Counted from the stretch's first letter, positions 31,857 through 39,787 are shown. The stretch: DNA of 64,000 nucleotides from Candidatus Falkowbacteria bacterium (GCA_963774955.1 CAVZGV010000006.1:223224-287223), one strand, 5' to 3'. The notes: generated by a model not told the origin, from the letters alone. Translations and numbers: made by a program.

Positions 31857-32243
31857 GGGGATGACCGGTTTCGATAGATTGATCTTTGAACAAAACGGCA
31901 AGCCGAGCTGCTACCATGCTCGTTAAACTGATAGCCACTTTATAAGTGCAAACACATTTTTAAGCAGGGTTAACGCAGCTTTTGCGTTCAACTTTGCTCC
32001 TGTTGCCGCGTAATTGCCGCAACCATTCGGATCTTTGACGCCTAATAGAAGACTCCGGGTGTCAAACTTATTAGGCTCTGTTAAGCAAGGCTCGCCTCTG
32101 CCAACTTAGCAAGAAAACTGGGGCAAGGTATAAGAATTTGGTTAGGATTACTATCTTATATTTTCAACCTAATCCTAAACAAGCTTGTAGATGTTTTGCC
32201 GAAGGCTTTCTAGACGCGGGTTCAATTCCCGCCATCTCCACCC
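31857..32243 (+). ncRNA. ssrA: tmRNA (ssrA)
   Basis: 5' GGGGATGACCGGTTTCGA... and 3' ...GGACGCGGGTTCAATTCCCGCCATCTCCACC form a tRNA-Ala-like acceptor/T-arm with a G3:U70 pair. Directly downstream of smpB. A candidate tag ORF ends ...FAPVAA-TAA at 32011-32013. Confidence 0.8.
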
Positions 32244-32471: not shown

Positions 32472-32738
32472 ATGGAATACATTGTTTACATTTTACAAAG
32501 TGAAAAAGACGGAAGTCATTATACAGGGCTCACTACTGACTTAAGGCTAAGAATCAAAAGTCATAATGAAGGAACTTCAATATATTCTTCGTCCAAAAAG
32601 CCTTTTATCCTTGTATGGCACTGCTCATTCCCTGATAAAAAATTAGCCGCTAAGTTTGAACATTATTTAAAAACAGGCTCCGGCATAGCCTTTCGCAACA
32701 AAAGATTAATAAATTACCATAAAAATATAAAACATTAA
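32472..32738 (+). CDS. GIY-YIG nuclease family small protein
   Basis: YIVYILQSEKDGSHYTGLTTDLRLRIKSHNEG matches the GIY...YIG motif with conserved R and N. Confidence 0.7.
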   Translation: MEYIVYILQSEKDGSHYTGLTTDLRLRIKSHNEGTSIYSSSKKPFILVWHCSFPDKKLAAKFEHYLKTGSGIAFRNKRLINYHKNIKH

Positions 32739-33487: not shown

Positions 33488-33688
33488 ATGCCAAAAATGA
33501 AAACCCACAAAAGTATTGCCAAACGCTTCAAAATATCCAAGACCGGCAAATTGATTAAAAGAAAAGCTGGCCAGGGACATTTTAATGCTCGTGAAAAAGG
33601 CAGTGTTACCCGGGCCAAAAGACTCAATAAAAGCACGGCTGAAGCAGTAGCCAAACCATTAAAACAGTTAATTCCCTATTCAAATTAA
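33488..33688 (+). CDS. rpmI: 50S ribosomal protein L35. Start moved to MPKMKTHK
   Basis: MPKMKTHKSIAKRFKISKTGKLIKRKAGQGH is the canonical L35 N-terminus. The ORF-track N-terminal extension (from 33428) is not supported. Confidence 0.85.
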   Translation: MPKMKTHKSIAKRFKISKTGKLIKRKAGQGHFNAREKGSVTRAKRLNKSTAEAVAKPLKQLIPYSN

Positions 33689-33737
33689 AACTAACCCAAT
33701 TTTATTTTTTATATTTAATTTTTGATTTTCTAAAGAT

Positions 33738-34082
33738 ATGCCAAGAGTAAAACGAGCCGTTATCCATTTGAAAAAAAGACGCACCATCAGAAAAGCCACC
33801 AAAGGCTATATGTGGGGCCGTAAAAAAACTATCAGACTGGGCCACACAGCTATGCTTAAGGCCGGTGTTTATGCGTTTGCCCATCGTCGCGATAAAAAAG
33901 GCGATTTTCGCAAGCTCTGGAATACCAGAATCAATGCAGCTGTGAGAGAACATGGTCTGAGCTATTCCAAATTTATTAATTTGCTGGCTAAGAAAAAAAT
34001 CGAACTTGATCGCAAAGTCCTGGCTGACCTGGCCATGAATTACCCGGAAGTATTTATAAAAATCATTGACGCAGTAAAATAA
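33738..34082 (+). CDS. rplT: 50S ribosomal protein L20
   Basis: MPRVKRAVIHLKKRRTIRKATKGYMWGRKK...GVYAFAHRRDKKGDFRKLW, canonical L20. Confidence 0.9.
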   Translation: MPRVKRAVIHLKKRRTIRKATKGYMWGRKKTIRLGHTAMLKAGVYAFAHRRDKKGDFRKLWNTRINAAVREHGLSYSKFINLLAKKKIELDRKVLADLAMNYPEVFIKIIDAVK

Positions 34083-34085
34083 GAA

Positions 34086-34118
34086 AAACCCCCGATAAAC
34101 CGGGGTTTTTCTATTTTT
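34086..34118 (+). terminator. Rho-independent terminator after rplT
   Basis: AAAAACCCCCGATAAACCGGGGTTTTTCTATTTTT. Confidence 0.6.
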
Positions 34119-34230
34119 CCCAGGAGGTTAAAGTCAACGGACCTTGACAACTTAATAAAATCATGTTATGATGATTTGTTGTGTTTTTTTTAATGTGAAA
34201 ATTGTTTTAATCAAGGTAACTACAAAAACT

Positions 34231-34761
34231 ATGGAACAGACAGAAAGAGAACGAGTGTTTCTGGTGAAAAAATTGCCTGCTGATCTAAATCAGTATCAGC
34301 CCATCACGATTCAAGTCGGCGATTTTTTCGACTCCAATTCCCCTGACGCCTTAAAAATCAGACGCAAAGGCGATCATTGTCATCTGATCAAAAAGCTTAC
34401 CAACTCTGCCCTGGAAAGAATCGAACACGTAATCGACATCAAACCGGGAGAATTCGATGCGCTGATCAAAGCCACAGTCCAATCACACAAAAAGTTAAGA
34501 TACTTCTACCCGTACGGCCAATACACCTGTGAACTGGACTGTTATCAAGACAGCTTAAACGGCTATGTCCGGGTGGAAGTGGAATTTGAAACCGAACAGG
34601 AAGCAAAGGACTTTGTACCGCCGGAGTGGTTTGGCGACGAAATCACGGAAATCAACCATGAAATTCATGAAGATCTGGGTCTAGTGACCTTTGATGAGAT
34701 GAAAGAACGCTACGCCAAAAAAGGAATCAACTTATTTCCAGTCTTTTTATCAGCTAATTAA
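34231..34761 (+). CDS. CYTH-like (triphosphate tunnel metalloenzyme) domain protein. Start at MEQTERE
   Basis: ERVFLVKKLP resembles the CYTH N-terminal E.E.KFLV signature. Later YVRVEVEFETEQE resembles the acidic beta-strand. Weak assignment. First of four co-oriented genes. Confidence 0.4.
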   Translation: MEQTERERVFLVKKLPADLNQYQPITIQVGDFFDSNSPDALKIRRKGDHCHLIKKLTNSALERIEHVIDIKPGEFDALIKATVQSHKKLRYFYPYGQYTCELDCYQDSLNGYVRVEVEFETEQEAKDFVPPEWFGDEITEINHEIHEDLGLVTFDEMKERYAKKGINLFPVFLSAN

Positions 34762-34871
34762 CAGCTGCCCTTATCGGGGCCGCTGTTTTTTTTACATATT
34801 GGTTAGCATTTTGACAACTTACAAACAACTTTTTAAAACAAACATCAACTAATAAAACACGGGGGTGTGCG

Positions 34872-36653
34872 ATGAAACCGAAAGTCGTTCTTGTCAATTT
34901 GATTTCTATGGATTATCTGACCCGCTATCAGGCGCCGCTAGCTGTGAATGTCCTGGCCGGATATTTGCATGCCAAAATTCCGAACATTCCGATCGAAATT
35001 CTCGATATGCAGAAAATTTTCAAAACGCATAATAACGACGGGCAAACCGTGGCTGAAAATTTTCAACGCACCATTGACCAGGTCATTACTGAAATCCTGG
35101 ACAATTGCCAAAAAGGCCCGACACTTGTCGGCCTTTCAATCAAATGGACGACCCAAAAAATCGCCCAGGAGATTATTGAACGGGTTCACGAGCAGTCTCC
35201 CCTTGCCAAGCCGCTTTTTATCATCGGCAACATCGGAGCCACCCATGGCTACCACGAACTTCTGCTGCAGCCGTCATTTCAGGATGTGCTGGCAGTCGTT
35301 GGCGAAGGCGAAGAAGCTCTGACCCAAATCGGACATCAGGCCAGGACGCACCTGACTTCTTTCTGCACCAAGCAGCATTATCAAGACATTGCCGGTGTCG
35401 CTGTGAACCTTGACGGCAATATTCACCTCTGTCCTCCGCAACAAATCGATTTGGCCAATTATCCTCGGCTTGAGATTGTTAACCCTGCCGATATCTACGA
35501 TGAAGAATGGGACGTGCATGCGCTGGAGACCAGTCGCGGCTGTCCCTGGGGCAGATGCAAATTCTGTTCCATCAGAAAACAGTTTGACAACGGGCAGCCA
35601 AATAACCGGGACAACAACAATTGGCGCTGGCGCGGCTTTGCCGTGGACAAGGTCCTCGACGATATTAGAAAATACGCGGCCTTGGGTGTCAGAAAATTCG
35701 ATTTCAAAGATTCTGAATTTTTTGGCCCCATGAAAACCAAGGCCGATTTTGAGACGTCGATTATCAGAGCCGAAATGATTGCCAAAGGTATTTTAACCAT
35801 CAACGAGGAACTTAAGGAAAACAACGACAACGTGCCTGACAAAACTATTTCCATTACCCATGTCTCTGCCCGCGTGGACACTATTTATAGTTCCCGCACG
35901 GGTGAAGAAGAAAGAAATGTCAGGCGTAAAAACGTCTATGCCCTGCTCAAATCCTGCGGTCTGCGCCGAGTTTATCTGGGCATTGAATCGGGCAGTCCGA
36001 CTCAGCTCAAACGCTTCTGCAAAGGAGTGCCGGTCTCGGACAACCTGAAAGCGATCACTATTTTGCGTGAACTCGGTCTGGAAATCGAAGTTGGCTTTAT
36101 CTTCTTCGACTATCTGGCTACTCTCGATGACTTGCACGCCAATATCGCCTTCATCGAGAAAAGCCGGATTCACCAGACTGATTCCCGCATCTTGGGCAGC
36201 CTGCGCATCCAAAAAGGCTCACCCTATGTTGATCTGGCCAGAAAGGAAAATATTCTCGGACAGGAAGATCCCGGTCAGCTCAGCTATCAAGCCAAGTTTT
36301 TGGATTCTAACGTTGAGTCCATTGAGAAAATCTTCACTACCTGGGAAAAAGCCACCCGAGCGCTGGTCAAAATCCTGCCCCGCTATCTGCGCATTGCCAG
36401 CTATCAACTTGATTTCTACTTTCTCAAAGCGCTGATCGCCTGCTTCCGCCACAAAAAAACCGCCAAACTGGCTGACTTGATTGACGACTTTGTCAGCCAG
36501 CGTGAAGAGCTGCTGCTGCTAATCGGCCAGGAAGCCGAAAACGGACGCTTTGGCAAACACAACCAGAAACTGCTGCGCGAATACCTGGCCTTGGCGCAAG
36601 ATAAAAATAATAGGCTGATCAGTCAAACCAAAAACCAAAACTTGGCCGCTTAA
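34872..36653 (+). CDS. B12-binding-domain radical SAM protein with atypical Cx4Cx2C cluster motif
   Basis: N-terminal Rossmann-like B12-binding-type region (KVVLVNLISMDY...LFIIGNIGATHGYHELL) followed by ETSRGCPWGRCKFCS and a glycine-rich GIESGSPTQLKRF segment. Confidence 0.5.
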   Translation: MKPKVVLVNLISMDYLTRYQAPLAVNVLAGYLHAKIPNIPIEILDMQKIFKTHNNDGQTVAENFQRTIDQVITEILDNCQKGPTLVGLSIKWTTQKIAQEIIERVHEQSPLAKPLFIIGNIGATHGYHELLLQPSFQDVLAVVGEGEEALTQIGHQARTHLTSFCTKQHYQDIAGVAVNLDGNIHLCPPQQIDLANYPRLEIVNPADIYDEEWDVHALETSRGCPWGRCKFCSIRKQFDNGQPNNRDNNNWRWRGFAVDKVLDDIRKYAALGVRKFDFKDSEFFGPMKTKADFETSIIRAEMIAKGILTINEELKENNDNVPDKTISITHVSARVDTIYSSRTGEEERNVRRKNVYALLKSCGLRRVYLGIESGSPTQLKRFCKGVPVSDNLKAITILRELGLEIEVGFIFFDYLATLDDLHANIAFIEKSRIHQTDSRILGSLRIQKGSPYVDLARKENILGQEDPGQLSYQAKFLDSNVESIEKIFTTWEKATRALVKILPRYLRIASYQLDFYFLKALIACFRHKKTAKLADLIDDFVSQREELLLLIGQEAENGRFGKHNQKLLREYLALAQDKNNRLISQTKNQNLAA

Positions 36654-36667
36654 CCCGGGGGTGTGTC

Positions 36668-37255
36668 ATGTCTGGAAAACTGGCAGTCTTTGAGGGCTTG
36701 GACGTTTCTGGCAAATCGACAATTGCCAAGACGATCGGCAAACAGGAAGGCTGGGTTTATTACAAGACTCCACCGCCTGCCTTTTTCGACCGCTGCCTGC
36801 AAATGAACACTGACGGCAAACCGTCTTATTCGGAACAGCGGATGCAGCTATTCATGGAATCACTGCAGTTCGCTTCCCGAAAAATTAAAGCCCTGCTGGC
36901 CAAAGACATTTCCGTGGCCTGCGACCGCTGGGTCTGGACCACCCTGTCTTACCATCTGGCTTTCAATGACAATCTGCGCTCTCAGGCTCTGAATAACTGG
37001 CAGAGCTATATCCCCCAAAATATGGTCCGACCTGATTTCAGCTTTCTGATTACGGTCAAAGACCAGGCGGAATGGCAAAAACGTGTCTGCGCCAGACCCA
37101 TACTGACTGCTCATGACCGGATGATAACCAACAACCGGAAAAAACGAGAGCTGGTCATGCATTTGTACCAGCGCTTTAATCCCGGGTTTATTGTTCTGGA
37201 CAATTCCGGAACACTTGCCGACACTCTGAATCTGGTGTCGAATTCTCTCAACTAA
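36668..37255 (+). CDS. P-loop kinase of the thymidylate (dNMP) kinase fold
   Basis: LAVFEGLDVSGKSTIAKTI (Walker A in dTMP-kinase context) and ACDRWVWTTLSYHLA (DRY..S..AYQ-like region). 14-nt gap from the preceding radical SAM gene. Confidence 0.45.
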   Translation: MSGKLAVFEGLDVSGKSTIAKTIGKQEGWVYYKTPPPAFFDRCLQMNTDGKPSYSEQRMQLFMESLQFASRKIKALLAKDISVACDRWVWTTLSYHLAFNDNLRSQALNNWQSYIPQNMVRPDFSFLITVKDQAEWQKRVCARPILTAHDRMITNNRKKRELVMHLYQRFNPGFIVLDNSGTLADTLNLVSNSLN

Positions 37256-37363
37256 TTTTATATTAAAGCCCTTCCTGCAACTCAGGAAGGGCTTTTTAGT
37301 ATTGATATTGACATTTTGCCATAATTAAGCTAAGTTAAATTATCAGAAACAAGGAGGATCAAA

Positions 37364-38137
37364 ATGAACAAGAACGTTCCTTTCATTAGTATCACTGACT
37401 TTATGAATCGAGTCCAGGCATATCAGATGTTAACTATTGCCAAAGAATACAACAGACAGGACAAACCAGTCAGGAAACTAGGCGTGGGTGTTATGATGAG
37501 CTATAAGACACTCCACGAGATACCGTCCAAATGGTCCCAAGCTTTTCCTCGAAATCAGGAAATATCCTCTATCTTTATTGATGATCCGCTGGCTTTCAAT
37601 GTTTTGCACTATGCAGACTATGAGGAAACTGATTTTTTTGCCAGCCTGCAATTTGCCCGCTACTGGGCCGGCTATAATCTGCACGCCATTCAGATGGACA
37701 TGATCTGGCCTGATCCCCGGGTAATTAAGGATTTTCGGGCTAAAAATCCGCATATCCAAATCATCCTGCAAGTCGGCGCCAAGGCCATTGAGCAAATCGG
37801 CACTAATCCCGAAAAACTCATTCAAAAGCTAAAAACTTATGGCCCCTGCCTGGATTATGTGCTTCTGGACAAAAGCATGGGCCAAGGCCATCCCATGGAT
37901 GCTCAAGGTCTAATTCCCTTTCTGGAAATTCTCGCTAACGAGCGACCGGATCTGGGATTAGTTGTTGCCGGTGGCTTAGGTCCGAATACATTGGACCTGG
38001 TCCAGCCCATCATTGCCAAATTTCCGCAAGTCAGTCTGGATGCCCAAGGCAAACTGCGTCCCAGCGGCAGTGCCCTGGATCCGGTTGACTGGGACATGGC
38101 AGGTACTTATTTGGAAAAAGCTTTCCAACTGTTTTAA
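37364..38137 (+). CDS. TIM-barrel protein resembling phosphoribosylanthranilate isomerase (TrpF-like)
   Basis: VLLDKSMGQGHPMDAQGL ... LVVAGGLGPNTL ... VSLDAQGKLRPSGSALDPV follows the order of TrpF motifs (LLD..GGTG..FDW / ILAGGL.P.NV / GVDVSSGVE...G.KD). No other trp genes in the window. Confidence 0.35.
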   Translation: MNKNVPFISITDFMNRVQAYQMLTIAKEYNRQDKPVRKLGVGVMMSYKTLHEIPSKWSQAFPRNQEISSIFIDDPLAFNVLHYADYEETDFFASLQFARYWAGYNLHAIQMDMIWPDPRVIKDFRAKNPHIQIILQVGAKAIEQIGTNPEKLIQKLKTYGPCLDYVLLDKSMGQGHPMDAQGLIPFLEILANERPDLGLVVAGGLGPNTLDLVQPIIAKFPQVSLDAQGKLRPSGSALDPVDWDMAGTYLEKAFQLF

Positions 38138-38139
38138 AC

Positions 38140-38178
38140 TCAAAGACCCTCGCAATGCGGGGGTCTTTTTTATTATTT
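38140..38178 (+). terminator. Rho-independent terminator ending the 34231-38137 operon
   Basis: AAAGACCCTCGCAATGCGGGGGTCTTTTTTATT. Confidence 0.6.
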
Positions 38179-38192
38179 TCAACTTTATATTT

Positions 38193-39787
38193 TTAGGCTT
38201 CCTTTAACTTTTCCAGTCTGGCCAGCGCTTCGGCTGTATTTTTTGAGCCCGAAATGACCTCGATAATTTTCTCCTGAGTATATTCATGGTCATCGCGCAA
38301 ATCATTGGCCAAATGTATAATTTTACCGAAAACAGGTCCGGGTTCAAGACCTAAAAACAAAAGATCACGACCCAGCAACAAATCAGCCGGCTTGCTTTGT
38401 TCTACATTTAAATCCTGCGCCCGTTGTAATAACCACTCGCCGGCTGGAAATTCAGAGGGGAAAATCTTTTGACTCCGAATCTTGCTCGCCAGGGAAAGGA
38501 CCACGGCCCAAATGATCAGCTTCAGCTACCAAAACCAATTCTTTAATGGTTGCCGGAGAGATCTTCTTGGCTAAACGACGGATAGCGCCGTCAGAAACTT
38601 TTGCTCCTTTTTTGACTTCCTCTTCATATAAAAAAGTCGGAAATAAATGATTGGCTACACAGGCAATTACTTTATCAGTTGTGGCCGTATCCATTTTTAT
38701 TTCTTTTAAAAATTTCTTGGTCGGATTTTTACCCTCAGGTTCATGGCCATGGGAAATAACCCTAATATTGCCCTCTTCGTCAGCCCTAAATTTAGTAGTC
38801 GTAGCTTTGCCCAGATCATGGCACAATGAAGCTAATAATATCACCAATGCTTCATCAGACGATAAATTCTCCCGCTTGGCGATTATTGCCGCCTGATCGA
38901 CTGACATCAAAGTATGATTCCAAACATTACCTTCAGGATGCCATTCCCGATCCTGAGGCATTTTAGCCAAGGGCGGAAAACTCGGATGGATTTCTTTCAA
39001 TATACCCAAGGCCATGCCTGCTGATAAACCAACAGAGGGCTTTTCCGATTTCAAAAGTAACTTTTTCCATTCCTCTAAAATTCTTTCTTCAGGCAATTCT
39101 TTTAATTGCGGGATCATATCAACAATCACCTTGGCGCTTTTACGATCCAAGTGATAAACCAAAACGGCCAATAAACTGCAAAGCCCGCATCATTCTCAAA
39201 GGATCATCACGAAAACGTTCAGCGTCGGTTATTCTTAAAACTCTGTTTTCAATATCTTCCAGTCCGTTATAAGGATCATGTAATTGTCCGGTCAGCGGAT
39301 CAGCAGCCATGGAATTTATGGTAAAATCACGTCTTTTAGCCGCTTCAGCCACACTCATGGTCGGATCAGCTTTAACTTCAAAGCCCTTATGCCCGCTGCT
39401 GACTTTAGAATCCTTGCGCGGCAAGGAAACATCAATATCAATGCCCTGGCCAAAGGAAATTTTTAAAATGCCAAAAGCCTTGCCCACATCCGAGACTTTA
39501 CCCAAGTCGCTGACCTGGTCTTCTATTTGTTTGGGTGTTAAACCATAAATTTCAATATCAAAATCCTTGGAAATTTTATTAAAGAATATATCCCGGACAC
39601 AGCCACCCACCAATAAAGCCTGGCCCCCGGCTGCTTTGATTTTTTCAGCAATTAAAATAACCTTTTCATACGTCTGAGCCAAATCCTCGTGACCCAAGTC
39701 GCGTAATTTCCTTAAATAGTCCTCGGGAGTCGGAATTTTGGCTTCAGGCTTCTTTTTGCCTTCATAAATAGCTAATTCATTTTTCAT
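38193..39787 (-). pseudogene. cca: CCA-adding tRNA nucleotidyltransferase / HD-domain polymerase split by two frameshifts
   Basis: 39140..39787 = nucleotidyltransferase head (GGCVRDIFF, RRDFTINSMA). 38452..39171 = HD domain (LCHDLGKATT). 38193..38504 = tail. Consecutive ORFs overlap by 32 and 53 nt in different frames. Confidence 0.6.

Follow-up and report, generated by a model that had tools for sequence, protein, structure and literature searches.

A three-gene operon pairing an OxsB-like radical SAM enzyme with a CYTH protein and a thymidylate-kinase-fold kinase in Candidatus Falkowbacteria: a putative nucleotide-modifying module

In a 64,000-nucleotide stretch of the genome of a Candidatus Falkowbacteria bacterium (GCA_963774955.1, CAVZGV010000006.1:223224-287223; hereafter the window), four co-oriented open reading frames (ORFs) follow the infC-rpmI-rplT genes. 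They encode a CYTH-type protein (gene 1), a cobalamin-type radical S-adenosylmethionine (SAM) enzyme resembling OxsB (gene 2), a thymidylate-kinase-fold kinase (gene 3) and a TIM barrel protein (gene 4), with gaps of 110, 14 and 108 nt between them (Table 1). A preliminary description, made from the sequence alone, had given the same ORFs, gaps and outer terminators, all of which we recover, and had read the four genes as one operon. This last point does not stand. An intrinsic terminator and a promoter-like element lie between genes 3 and 4, gene 4 is not conserved together with the others, and the single four-gene operon is therefore rejected. From its sequence signals, the locus is predicted to consist of one operon of genes 1 to 3 with its own promoter and terminator, a candidate module for nucleotide modification, and of a separate transcription unit for gene 4.

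The promoter-like site ahead of gene 1, which is sigma-70-like with an extended -10 element, is the top-scoring one within positions 33600-38600, and because an upstream ATG at 34168 falls inside it, we place the start of gene 1 at the ATG at 34231. The terminator that closes the operon has a fold energy of -22.6 kcal/mol (z=-5.66 against shuffled sequences). In a sister genome (L006), a hairpin with a different stem sequence occupies the equivalent position, and the TTGACA box 3′ of the hairpin is invariant between the two genomes. An Rfam search of the window returned the transfer-messenger RNA (tmRNA) and one tRNA only; neither a riboswitch nor another known RNA was found at the locus. Within the spacer between genes 1 and 2, a weak hairpin followed by a T-run (34767-34780) could be a partial intra-operon terminator or attenuator.

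Table 1. Predicted genes and transcription signals at the locus (window coordinates; RBS, ribosome-binding site; TTM, triphosphate-tunnel metalloenzyme).
Feature	Position	Strand	Basis
Intrinsic terminator of the infC-rpmI-rplT unit; 5′ boundary of the module	34090..34105	+	Terminator scan, sequence
Promoter-like site of the three-gene operon, TTGACA-17-TATGAT, extended TG, 11/12 matches	34144..34172	+	Sequence
Gene 1, predicted CYTH/TTM protein resembling NeuTTM, 176 aa	34231..34761	+	Profile and residue conservation
Gene 2, predicted OxsB-like cobalamin-type radical SAM enzyme, 593 aa	34872..36653	+	Profile, predicted fold, motif
Gene 3, predicted divergent thymidylate-kinase-fold nucleotide kinase, 195 aa	36668..37255	+	Pfam, family conservation
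Intrinsic terminator closing the three-gene operon, 13-bp stem, 7 G·C pairs, T-tail	37265..37295	+	Terminator scan
Promoter-like region for gene 4, followed by an AAGGAGG RBS	37307..37343	+	TTGACA box and downstream A/T-rich box conserved in L006
Gene 4, TIM barrel with predicted TrpF-like fold, outside the module, 257 aa	37364..38137	+	Predicted fold
Intrinsic terminator 3′ of gene 4	38142..38168	+	Terminator scan; equivalent terminator in L006

At the superfamily level, profile searches agree with the family and fold assignments of the preliminary description: Radical_SAM and Thymidylate_kin for genes 2 and 3, CYTH (gene 1) and B12-binding (gene 2) below their Pfam gathering thresholds, and a faint resemblance of gene 4 to phosphoribosylanthranilate isomerase (PRAI, TrpF). 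For gene 2, the Radical_SAM match has an E-value of 3e-11 and the B12-binding match one of 5.5e-4. Compared with the PDB, the profile of the gene 2 family matched OxsB (5ul2) best, with an E-value of 1.8e-48 against 2.3e-11 for the second-best solved structure and 0.036 for TokK, and the single sequence matched OxsB at E=5.7e-22. The AlphaFold (AF2) model of the protein (predicted local distance difference test, pLDDT, 89.3) retrieved with Foldseek three OxsB entries as its top three matches (E~1e-29, TMq 0.70), followed by TsrM (1e-17), and the predicted fold aligns with OxsB over the Rossmann domain, the radical SAM barrel and the C-terminal helical bundle. The cluster motif GCPWGRCKFC, already noticed in the preliminary description, is indeed of the Cx4Cx2C type (C224, C229, C232) and does not vary among the 25 homologues that were aligned; the corresponding segments read ETSRGCDYSRCTFC in OxsB and ETSRGCPWGRCKFC in gene 2, with ETSRGC-x4-C-x2-C common to both. 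The acidic residue equivalent to that of the GGE motif is likewise conserved (E363 in OxsB, E282 in the window). Among the 120 homologues listed, the full-length proteins P0001-P0085 all carry Cx4Cx2C and match OxsB at 1e-16 to 1e-44 while those from P0086 onward all carry Cx3Cx2C, the motif thereby tracking the similarity to OxsB. By sequence and by predicted fold, gene 2 is a homologue of OxsB, its closest characterised or solved relative on both counts, and its use of cobalamin is putative.

An exhaustive profile search yielded 783 representatives at E<=1e-30, so that the OxsB-like clade is large and essentially uncharacterised. No homologue of gene 2 was found in the INPHARED phage collection, and the relatives found in IMG/VR are distant (<=28% identity).

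Gene 3 is above the Pfam gathering threshold of Thymidylate_kin (E=7.8e-11; 42.4 bits against 27) and below the cutoff of the Tmk equivalog model TIGR00041 (42.1 bits against 83.25), and hence falls in the Tmk fold family without being a Tmk equivalog. Its P-loop (GLDVSGKST) and DRW motif are invariant in the family. In the alignment with the thymidylate kinase (TMPK) of Plasmodium falciparum, the segment SANRWE corresponds to MESLQF in the window, with Leu at the position of an Arg which we take to contact the thymine base. In the PADLOC collection, gene 3 matches PDC-M51B (1.8e-16) and VakA (1.3e-7). It is predicted to be a divergent nucleotide kinase of the thymidylate kinase fold.

For gene 1, the comparison with the PDB gave NE1496/NeuTTM at E=3.6e-13 over residues 3-143, and the phage family phrog_6660 was matched at 7.6e-16, the Pfam CYTH match itself being weak (1e-3; 19.4 bits against a threshold of 23.2). 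The protein can be aligned with NeuTTM across the whole domain and shares its ExE, ELD and VEVEF acidic motifs and most of the basic tunnel residues, but differs from it by a conserved C-terminal extension of ~30 amino acids (NHEIHE.LG.VTFDEMK). In 15 homologues, K42, R44, K54, K55, R90, E101, D103, E116 and E118 are invariant, as are E5 and E7 of an N-terminal ExExV motif in which V9 replaces the usual Lys of ExExK. These features predict a NeuTTM-like phosphohydrolase of the CYTH triphosphate-tunnel type.

The preliminary description had suggested looking for the four families side by side in other genomes. We searched the four proteins against ~160 loci anchored on homologues of the radical SAM enzyme. 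Falkowbacteria, Parcubacteria, Saccharibacteria and metagenomes together gave at least 12 distinct loci that have genes 1, 2 and 3, in agreement with local hidden Markov models (HMMs). Over ~40 related loci it is these three genes alone that stay together, gene 4 being linked to them in L006 only. The three genes occur in at least five arrangements (1>2>3; 2> <3 <1; <3 2> 1>; 3>2>; and 2> 1> <3, the numerals standing for the genes and the arrowheads for their direction). Their base composition is atypical, with a GC content at third codon positions (GC3) of 0.58 for gene 2 and 0.60 for gene 3 against 0.39±0.05 for the long ORFs of the window, and their distribution in the candidate phyla radiation (CPR) is sporadic, with ~60 clusters of the radical SAM protein. 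Between the window and L006, genes 2, 3 and 4 are 68-77% identical, gene 1 is 91% identical and the adjacent housekeeping genes are 63-89% identical. The module is probably a horizontally acquired accessory element.

Gene 4 is an independent neighbour that belongs to a widespread orphan family of Patescibacteria. It has more than 1000 homologues across this group, compared with the ~60 close relatives of the radical SAM enzyme, and three of them on long contigs adjoin NusA, a NUDIX hydrolase with an acyltransferase, and MazG with DHHA1, respectively, with no module gene near any of the three. The other module loci, at least 12 in number, are without gene 4, and since L006 is syntenic with the window far beyond the module (CCA-adding enzyme, peptidyl-prolyl isomerase and further neighbours, within the housekeeping range given above), the adjacency of genes 3 and 4 counts as a single observation. 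The predicted model of the protein (pLDDT 94.2) is a (βα)8 barrel closest to PRAI. No Pfam family was assigned to it, the PRAI family included; the NCBIfam PRAI models score far below their cutoffs (NF002304, 14.7 bits against 181; NF002302, 13.8 against 172), and the family profile reaches ribulose-phosphate epimerase (0.014) and PRAI (0.03) equally weakly, over the β6-β7 phosphate-binding segment only. TrpF catalyses with a Cys on β1 and an Asp on β6. In a motif-level alignment, the β1 strand of gene 4 (PFISITDF; family consensus PYIGITDF) has Ile/Ser in place of the catalytic Cys, the β6 LLD motif (D169) is at least 90% conserved, and identity to TrpF is 13-14%. Judging from the model, gene 4 is TrpF-like in fold without being a demonstrable TrpF. 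There are no trp genes around it in the window, nor around its homologues in L156-L158. The GC3 of gene 4 (0.50) is also above the window mean. A pathway of all four genes, in which the TrpF-like barrel would carry out an Amadori-type isomerisation of an N-ribosyl-5-phosphate intermediate before methylation by the B12-radical SAM enzyme, appears very improbable given the conserved terminator and promoter between genes 3 and 4, the scarcity of the linkage and the low PRAI scores. The idea of a nucleotide-tailoring pathway unrelated to tryptophan synthesis, which had been proposed for the four genes, is supported for genes 1 to 3 and abandoned for gene 4, which lies outside the unit.

The preliminary description knew of no comparable system. 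However, Cx4Cx2C is the signature of the characterised enzyme OxsB, and the OxsB/OxsA system is therefore a close known analogue. OxsB, which forms a complex with OxsA, carries out a ring contraction that gives oxetanocin A, an antiviral nucleoside, its oxetane ring. The enzyme contracts the deoxyribose of dAMP, dADP or dATP by abstraction of the 2′-hydrogen in a reaction that requires cobalamin, OxsA (an HD phosphohydrolase) and a dehydrogenase of the cell being its partners, and the CX4CX2C motif sets it apart from PFL-AE, TsrM and TokK (PMC9204698, a review). Like the module as we predict it, the OxsB/OxsA pair of a Bacillus megaterium plasmid (together with AlbB of the albucidin cluster) combines this motif with the Rossmann domain, barrel and bundle and with a phosphohydrolase as operon partner; the module differs in its CYTH/TTM partner, in the additional Tmk-fold kinase and in its CPR host. 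A second parallel is viperin (pVip/RSAD2) with CMPK2, where the radical SAM enzyme changes a nucleotide in its sugar and is genetically linked to a kinase of the Tmk superfamily that feeds it substrate. Viperins are recurrently associated with nucleoside monophosphate kinases that supply their nucleoside triphosphate (NTP) substrate, and there are also viperin fusions with a 'triphosphatase or cyclase' domain (10.1101/2023.09.13.557418), which we take to be CYTH. Gene 2, however, belongs to another class of radical SAM enzymes, B12-type with Cx4Cx2C, and the CPR loci lie outside defence islands. Finally, the two-gene PDC-M51 system (A and B) of PADLOC also joins a radical SAM-like protein to a kinase, as genes 2 and 3 do, but it is without a CYTH component and its component A matches gene 2 marginally (2e-4, N-terminal half only). 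Two metagenome-assembled genomes of Thermococcus (L048, 1112-4835; L068, 8001-11725) have a gene 3-like kinase (HMM E~1e-16) ~2-3 kb from a distant B12-radical SAM gene, which may be an archaeal pairing of the PDC-M51 type. Our literature search found no publication in which the module is described or an OxsB-like enzyme is connected with CPR bacteria or with defence, and nothing on PDC-M51 or on oxetanocin in an anti-phage or defence setting.

From homology and the recurring gene partners we infer the function of the module, and on balance we favour, with modest confidence, a self-contained and horizontally acquired operon of genes 1 to 3 that modifies a nucleotide, the product being a sugar-modified nucleotide or nucleoside analogue and gene 4 being independent. 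The kinase would phosphorylate a (deoxy)nucleoside monophosphate that may be a pyrimidine or 5-modified pyrimidine, and could thereby provide gene 2 with a di- or triphosphate to act on, as CMPK2 feeds viperin. With a 5′-deoxyadenosyl radical and cobalamin, gene 2 would then rearrange or C-alkylate the sugar, and the CYTH protein could take the role of OxsA, either by shortening the phosphate chain on the substrate or on the product, or by removing triphosphate. An antiviral or antimetabolite use of the product is plausible, and seems the likeliest one.

The chemistry of gene 2 may be of another kind within the same three-gene nucleotide module, namely a cobalamin-dependent radical C-methylation of the sugar or base instead of a ring contraction. 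The preliminary description had taken methylation as the default for B12-radical SAM enzymes, which is not the most suitable guide here because the nearest characterised relative contracts the ring of deoxyadenosine phosphates (PMC9204698). Most characterised enzymes of this class are methylases, as are most of the weak NCBIfam matches of gene 2, but OxsB, the nearest of them, is the sole non-methylase of the class. OxsB alone is said to be able to methylate dAMP as well. In silico, none of the structural or sequence features at our disposal separates ring contraction from methylation or other chemistry, and methylation, which we consider somewhat unlikely, would be a variant of the sugar-modifying operon that we favour.

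In regards to the substrate, two module loci have a ThyA-family gene, on the same strand, as the immediate upstream neighbour of gene 2. The protein in L011 is canonical (1e-90) and that in L100 divergent (1e-21), the latter gene standing 29 nt from the radical SAM gene, and the two ThyA-like proteins are 21% identical whereas the adjacent radical SAM proteins are 67% identical. These neighbours point to pyrimidine (deoxy)nucleotides. They would also be in keeping with a housekeeping or salvage role, an alternative supply of (deoxy)pyrimidine nucleotides in a reduced CPR genome, for instance of ThyA-linked dTMP, with the kinase as a substitute for Tmk and the CYTH protein as an NTP pyrophosphatase. 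The Tmk fold of gene 3, the housekeeping genes that flank the module and the lack of a second Tmk-like ORF within the 64-kb window agree with such a role. It is nevertheless improbable, in view of the sporadic distribution and atypical composition of the module, of the greater divergence of its genes (gene 1 being at 91%) between the window and L006 than that of most adjacent housekeeping genes, and of the sub-cutoff Tmk score of gene 3 and its Leu at the position of the thymine-contacting Arg; moreover, canonical salvage has no evident need of a radical SAM/B12 enzyme.

Several observations weigh against a nucleotide-modifying operon of the OxsB kind. The identity between gene 2 and OxsB is ~21-25% only, and gene 2 is without the N-terminal domain I of OxsB: residues 65-431 align to OxsB 163-496, and ~60 residues precede the aligned region compared with ~160 in OxsB. 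Cx3Cx2C is found in a Sphingobium relative (E=8e-40) and in several of the top representatives, and Cx4Cx2C was rejected as a strict clade marker for this reason. Radical SAM enzymes of the B12 type switch substrate readily. In gene 1, two substitutions relative to NeuTTM (K8 to V and Y28 to D) were noted, and NeuTTM itself is specific for inorganic triphosphate and not for nucleotides. The three-gene operon contains no HD protein, the type of partner represented by OxsA. CYTH genes of the gene 1 type stand alone on three long contigs (L163-L165), a sample biased to exceptions since these contigs were picked for matching no radical SAM contig, and an obligate linkage of gene 1 to the radical SAM gene was rejected on these grounds. 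Of the 73 ORFs on the flanks of 16 module loci, most have housekeeping functions (tRNA synthetases, BipA, DnaG, sigma factors, fructose-bisphosphatase). Viperin neighbours were also considered and rejected, the PADLOC 'pVip' matches in the flanks being generic SPASM/NirJ-like and KamA-family radical SAM proteins (72.8 against a cutoff of 180 with the viperin model), and the PDC systems are unvalidated candidates obtained by guilt-by-embedding. Lastly, close relatives of gene 2 occur without genes 1 and 3 (L003, L004, L104). This would also be expected if the substrate of the radical SAM enzyme were not a nucleotide but, for instance, a peptide, a lipid, a sugar phosphate or a cofactor, with the kinase and CYTH protein as accessory or coincidental neighbours. 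The very broad substrate range of B12-radical SAM enzymes suits that possibility, and so do the relatives that lie near a phosphomutase/HAD pair, an epimerase or a second B12-radical SAM gene, or inside giant multidomain proteins. It is quite improbable all the same, as genes 1 to 3 have been kept together through at least five rearrangements, both partners come from families that handle phosphates or nucleotides, and the closest characterised enzyme uses nucleotides.

The genes next to other OxsB-like enzymes bear on the nucleotide-modifying role that we favour. In L160, where SIR2-STAND, caspase-like and SIR2 proteins and transposases are also encoded, the radical SAM gene is beside a YfbR-type HD hydrolase (the OxsA type), and in L159 it is beside a NUDIX hydrolase, with Cas6 and a transposase nearby. 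An IMG/VR contig (L086) combines it with a NUDIX hydrolase and a STAND NTPase. On a conjugative plasmid of Sphingobium yanoikuyae (L166; NZ_CP139981.1, 12915-16795), a GntR-SurE-radical SAM-NUDIX operon contains an enzyme with Cx3Cx2C, SurE being a 5′/3′-nucleotidase. Four phosphohydrolase folds (HD, NUDIX, SurE and CYTH) thus occupy the partner position, and gene 1 in the place of OxsA fits this pattern. Other OxsB-like genes are found beside a HAD phosphatase and a phosphomutase (L122) or by a short-chain dehydrogenase and a cupin, with recombinases and prophage genes alongside (L161/L162); oxetanocin synthesis likewise requires a dehydrogenase. A PduO-type cobalamin adenosyltransferase (E 8e-51) is encoded two genes upstream of the radical SAM gene in L143 (2282-5219), consistent with cobalamin dependence in the clade. 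A defence-island context for the CPR module was rejected, the defence-like settings being confined to the distant relatives L160, L159 and L086. As a wider proposal, tentative and in our view rather doubtful, the OxsB-like radical SAM enzymes (mostly Cx4Cx2C), partnered by nucleotide phosphohydrolases that can replace one another (HD, NUDIX, SurE, CYTH) and in some cases also by kinases, could form a second widespread family of nucleotide-analogue synthases, independent of viperin and used in antiviral or inter-microbial conflict, in which the CPR operon would make an oxetanocin-like chain-terminating nucleotide.

Further settings of OxsB-like genes were observed in passing. The defence-island-like locus L160 (1-13608) contains two caspase-like proteases, SIR2-nSTAND1-FGE, the OxsB-like radical SAM gene, YfbR/HD_3, transposases, SIR2, AAA and VWA. 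In a Daviesbacteria-type genome (L004/L005, 792-12185), a radical SAM gene of the gene 2 family, without genes 1 and 3, is seemingly part of a small biosynthetic cluster with transposases on its flanks; the cluster has a SAM methyltransferase, an unknown 262-aa protein, a PfkB kinase, two HAD hydrolases, a pyridoxal phosphate-dependent decarboxylase and a phosphoribosyl pyrophosphate synthase. Gut Firmicutes (Ruminococcus, Clostridia) share a conserved five-gene operon (L015, 6143-10901; also L016, L125, L127 and L128) that encodes a weak ParB-CE-like protein, a Polβ-type nucleotidyltransferase, an OxsB-like radical SAM enzyme (CPWNKCSFC) and unknown proteins of ~440 and 212 aa. Giant ORFs, from 3000 to over 7000 aa long and in sequences without Ns, also contain OxsB-like radical SAM domains in Planctomycetia and other lineages (L009, 45-12995; L010, 165-13958; L012, 189-9742; L113, 115-13329; P0360 with 7176 aa, P0361, P0365 and P0418), and among the 133 new top representatives there are 37 longer than 1000 aa. 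The radical SAM domain of L012 is N-terminal and apparently followed by an FkbH/HAD-like segment. A 558-aa protein of the anaerobic eukaryote Anaeramoeba flamelloides (P0062) belongs to the gene 2 family (30% identity, E 9.5e-57) and has a Cx4Cx2C motif (CSWSGCNFC); its presence there could be due to transfer or to contamination.

Two neighbouring regions of the window, away from the module, also deserve mention. On the minus strand, the CCA-adding enzyme/HD-domain region (38193-39787) is made up of three overlapping ORFs in three frames (39787-39140, 39171-38452 and 38504-38193). The region is split in the same way in L006, which could reflect conserved frameshifts, separate genes or a shared assembly error. 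On the plus strand, an 88-aa ORF (32472-32738) between the tmRNA (31857-32243) and infC resembles, by eye, a GIY-YIG protein of the UPF0213 type.

To our knowledge, practically no enzyme besides OxsB has been characterised in this branch of the B12-radical SAM enzymes, and the combination of a CYTH protein with a Tmk-fold kinase is a partner set not described before for an OxsB-like enzyme. Derivatives of oxetanocin A have been developed as drugs. An OxsB-like operon in ultra-small CPR bacteria, along with relatives near nucleotide hydrolases on a plasmid, on a viral contig and in defence-like loci, suggests that sugar-rearranged nucleotides of the oxetanocin type may extend far beyond two natural-product clusters. 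The large orphan family of Patescibacteria TIM barrels represented by gene 4, set apart here with its TrpF-like fold, merits a study of its own. If the proposed role of genes 1 to 3 is correct, they would provide a defined three-protein system in which to find new nucleoside-analogue chemistry, a possible parallel to viperin immunity, and a rare accessory biosynthetic capability in CPR organisms.

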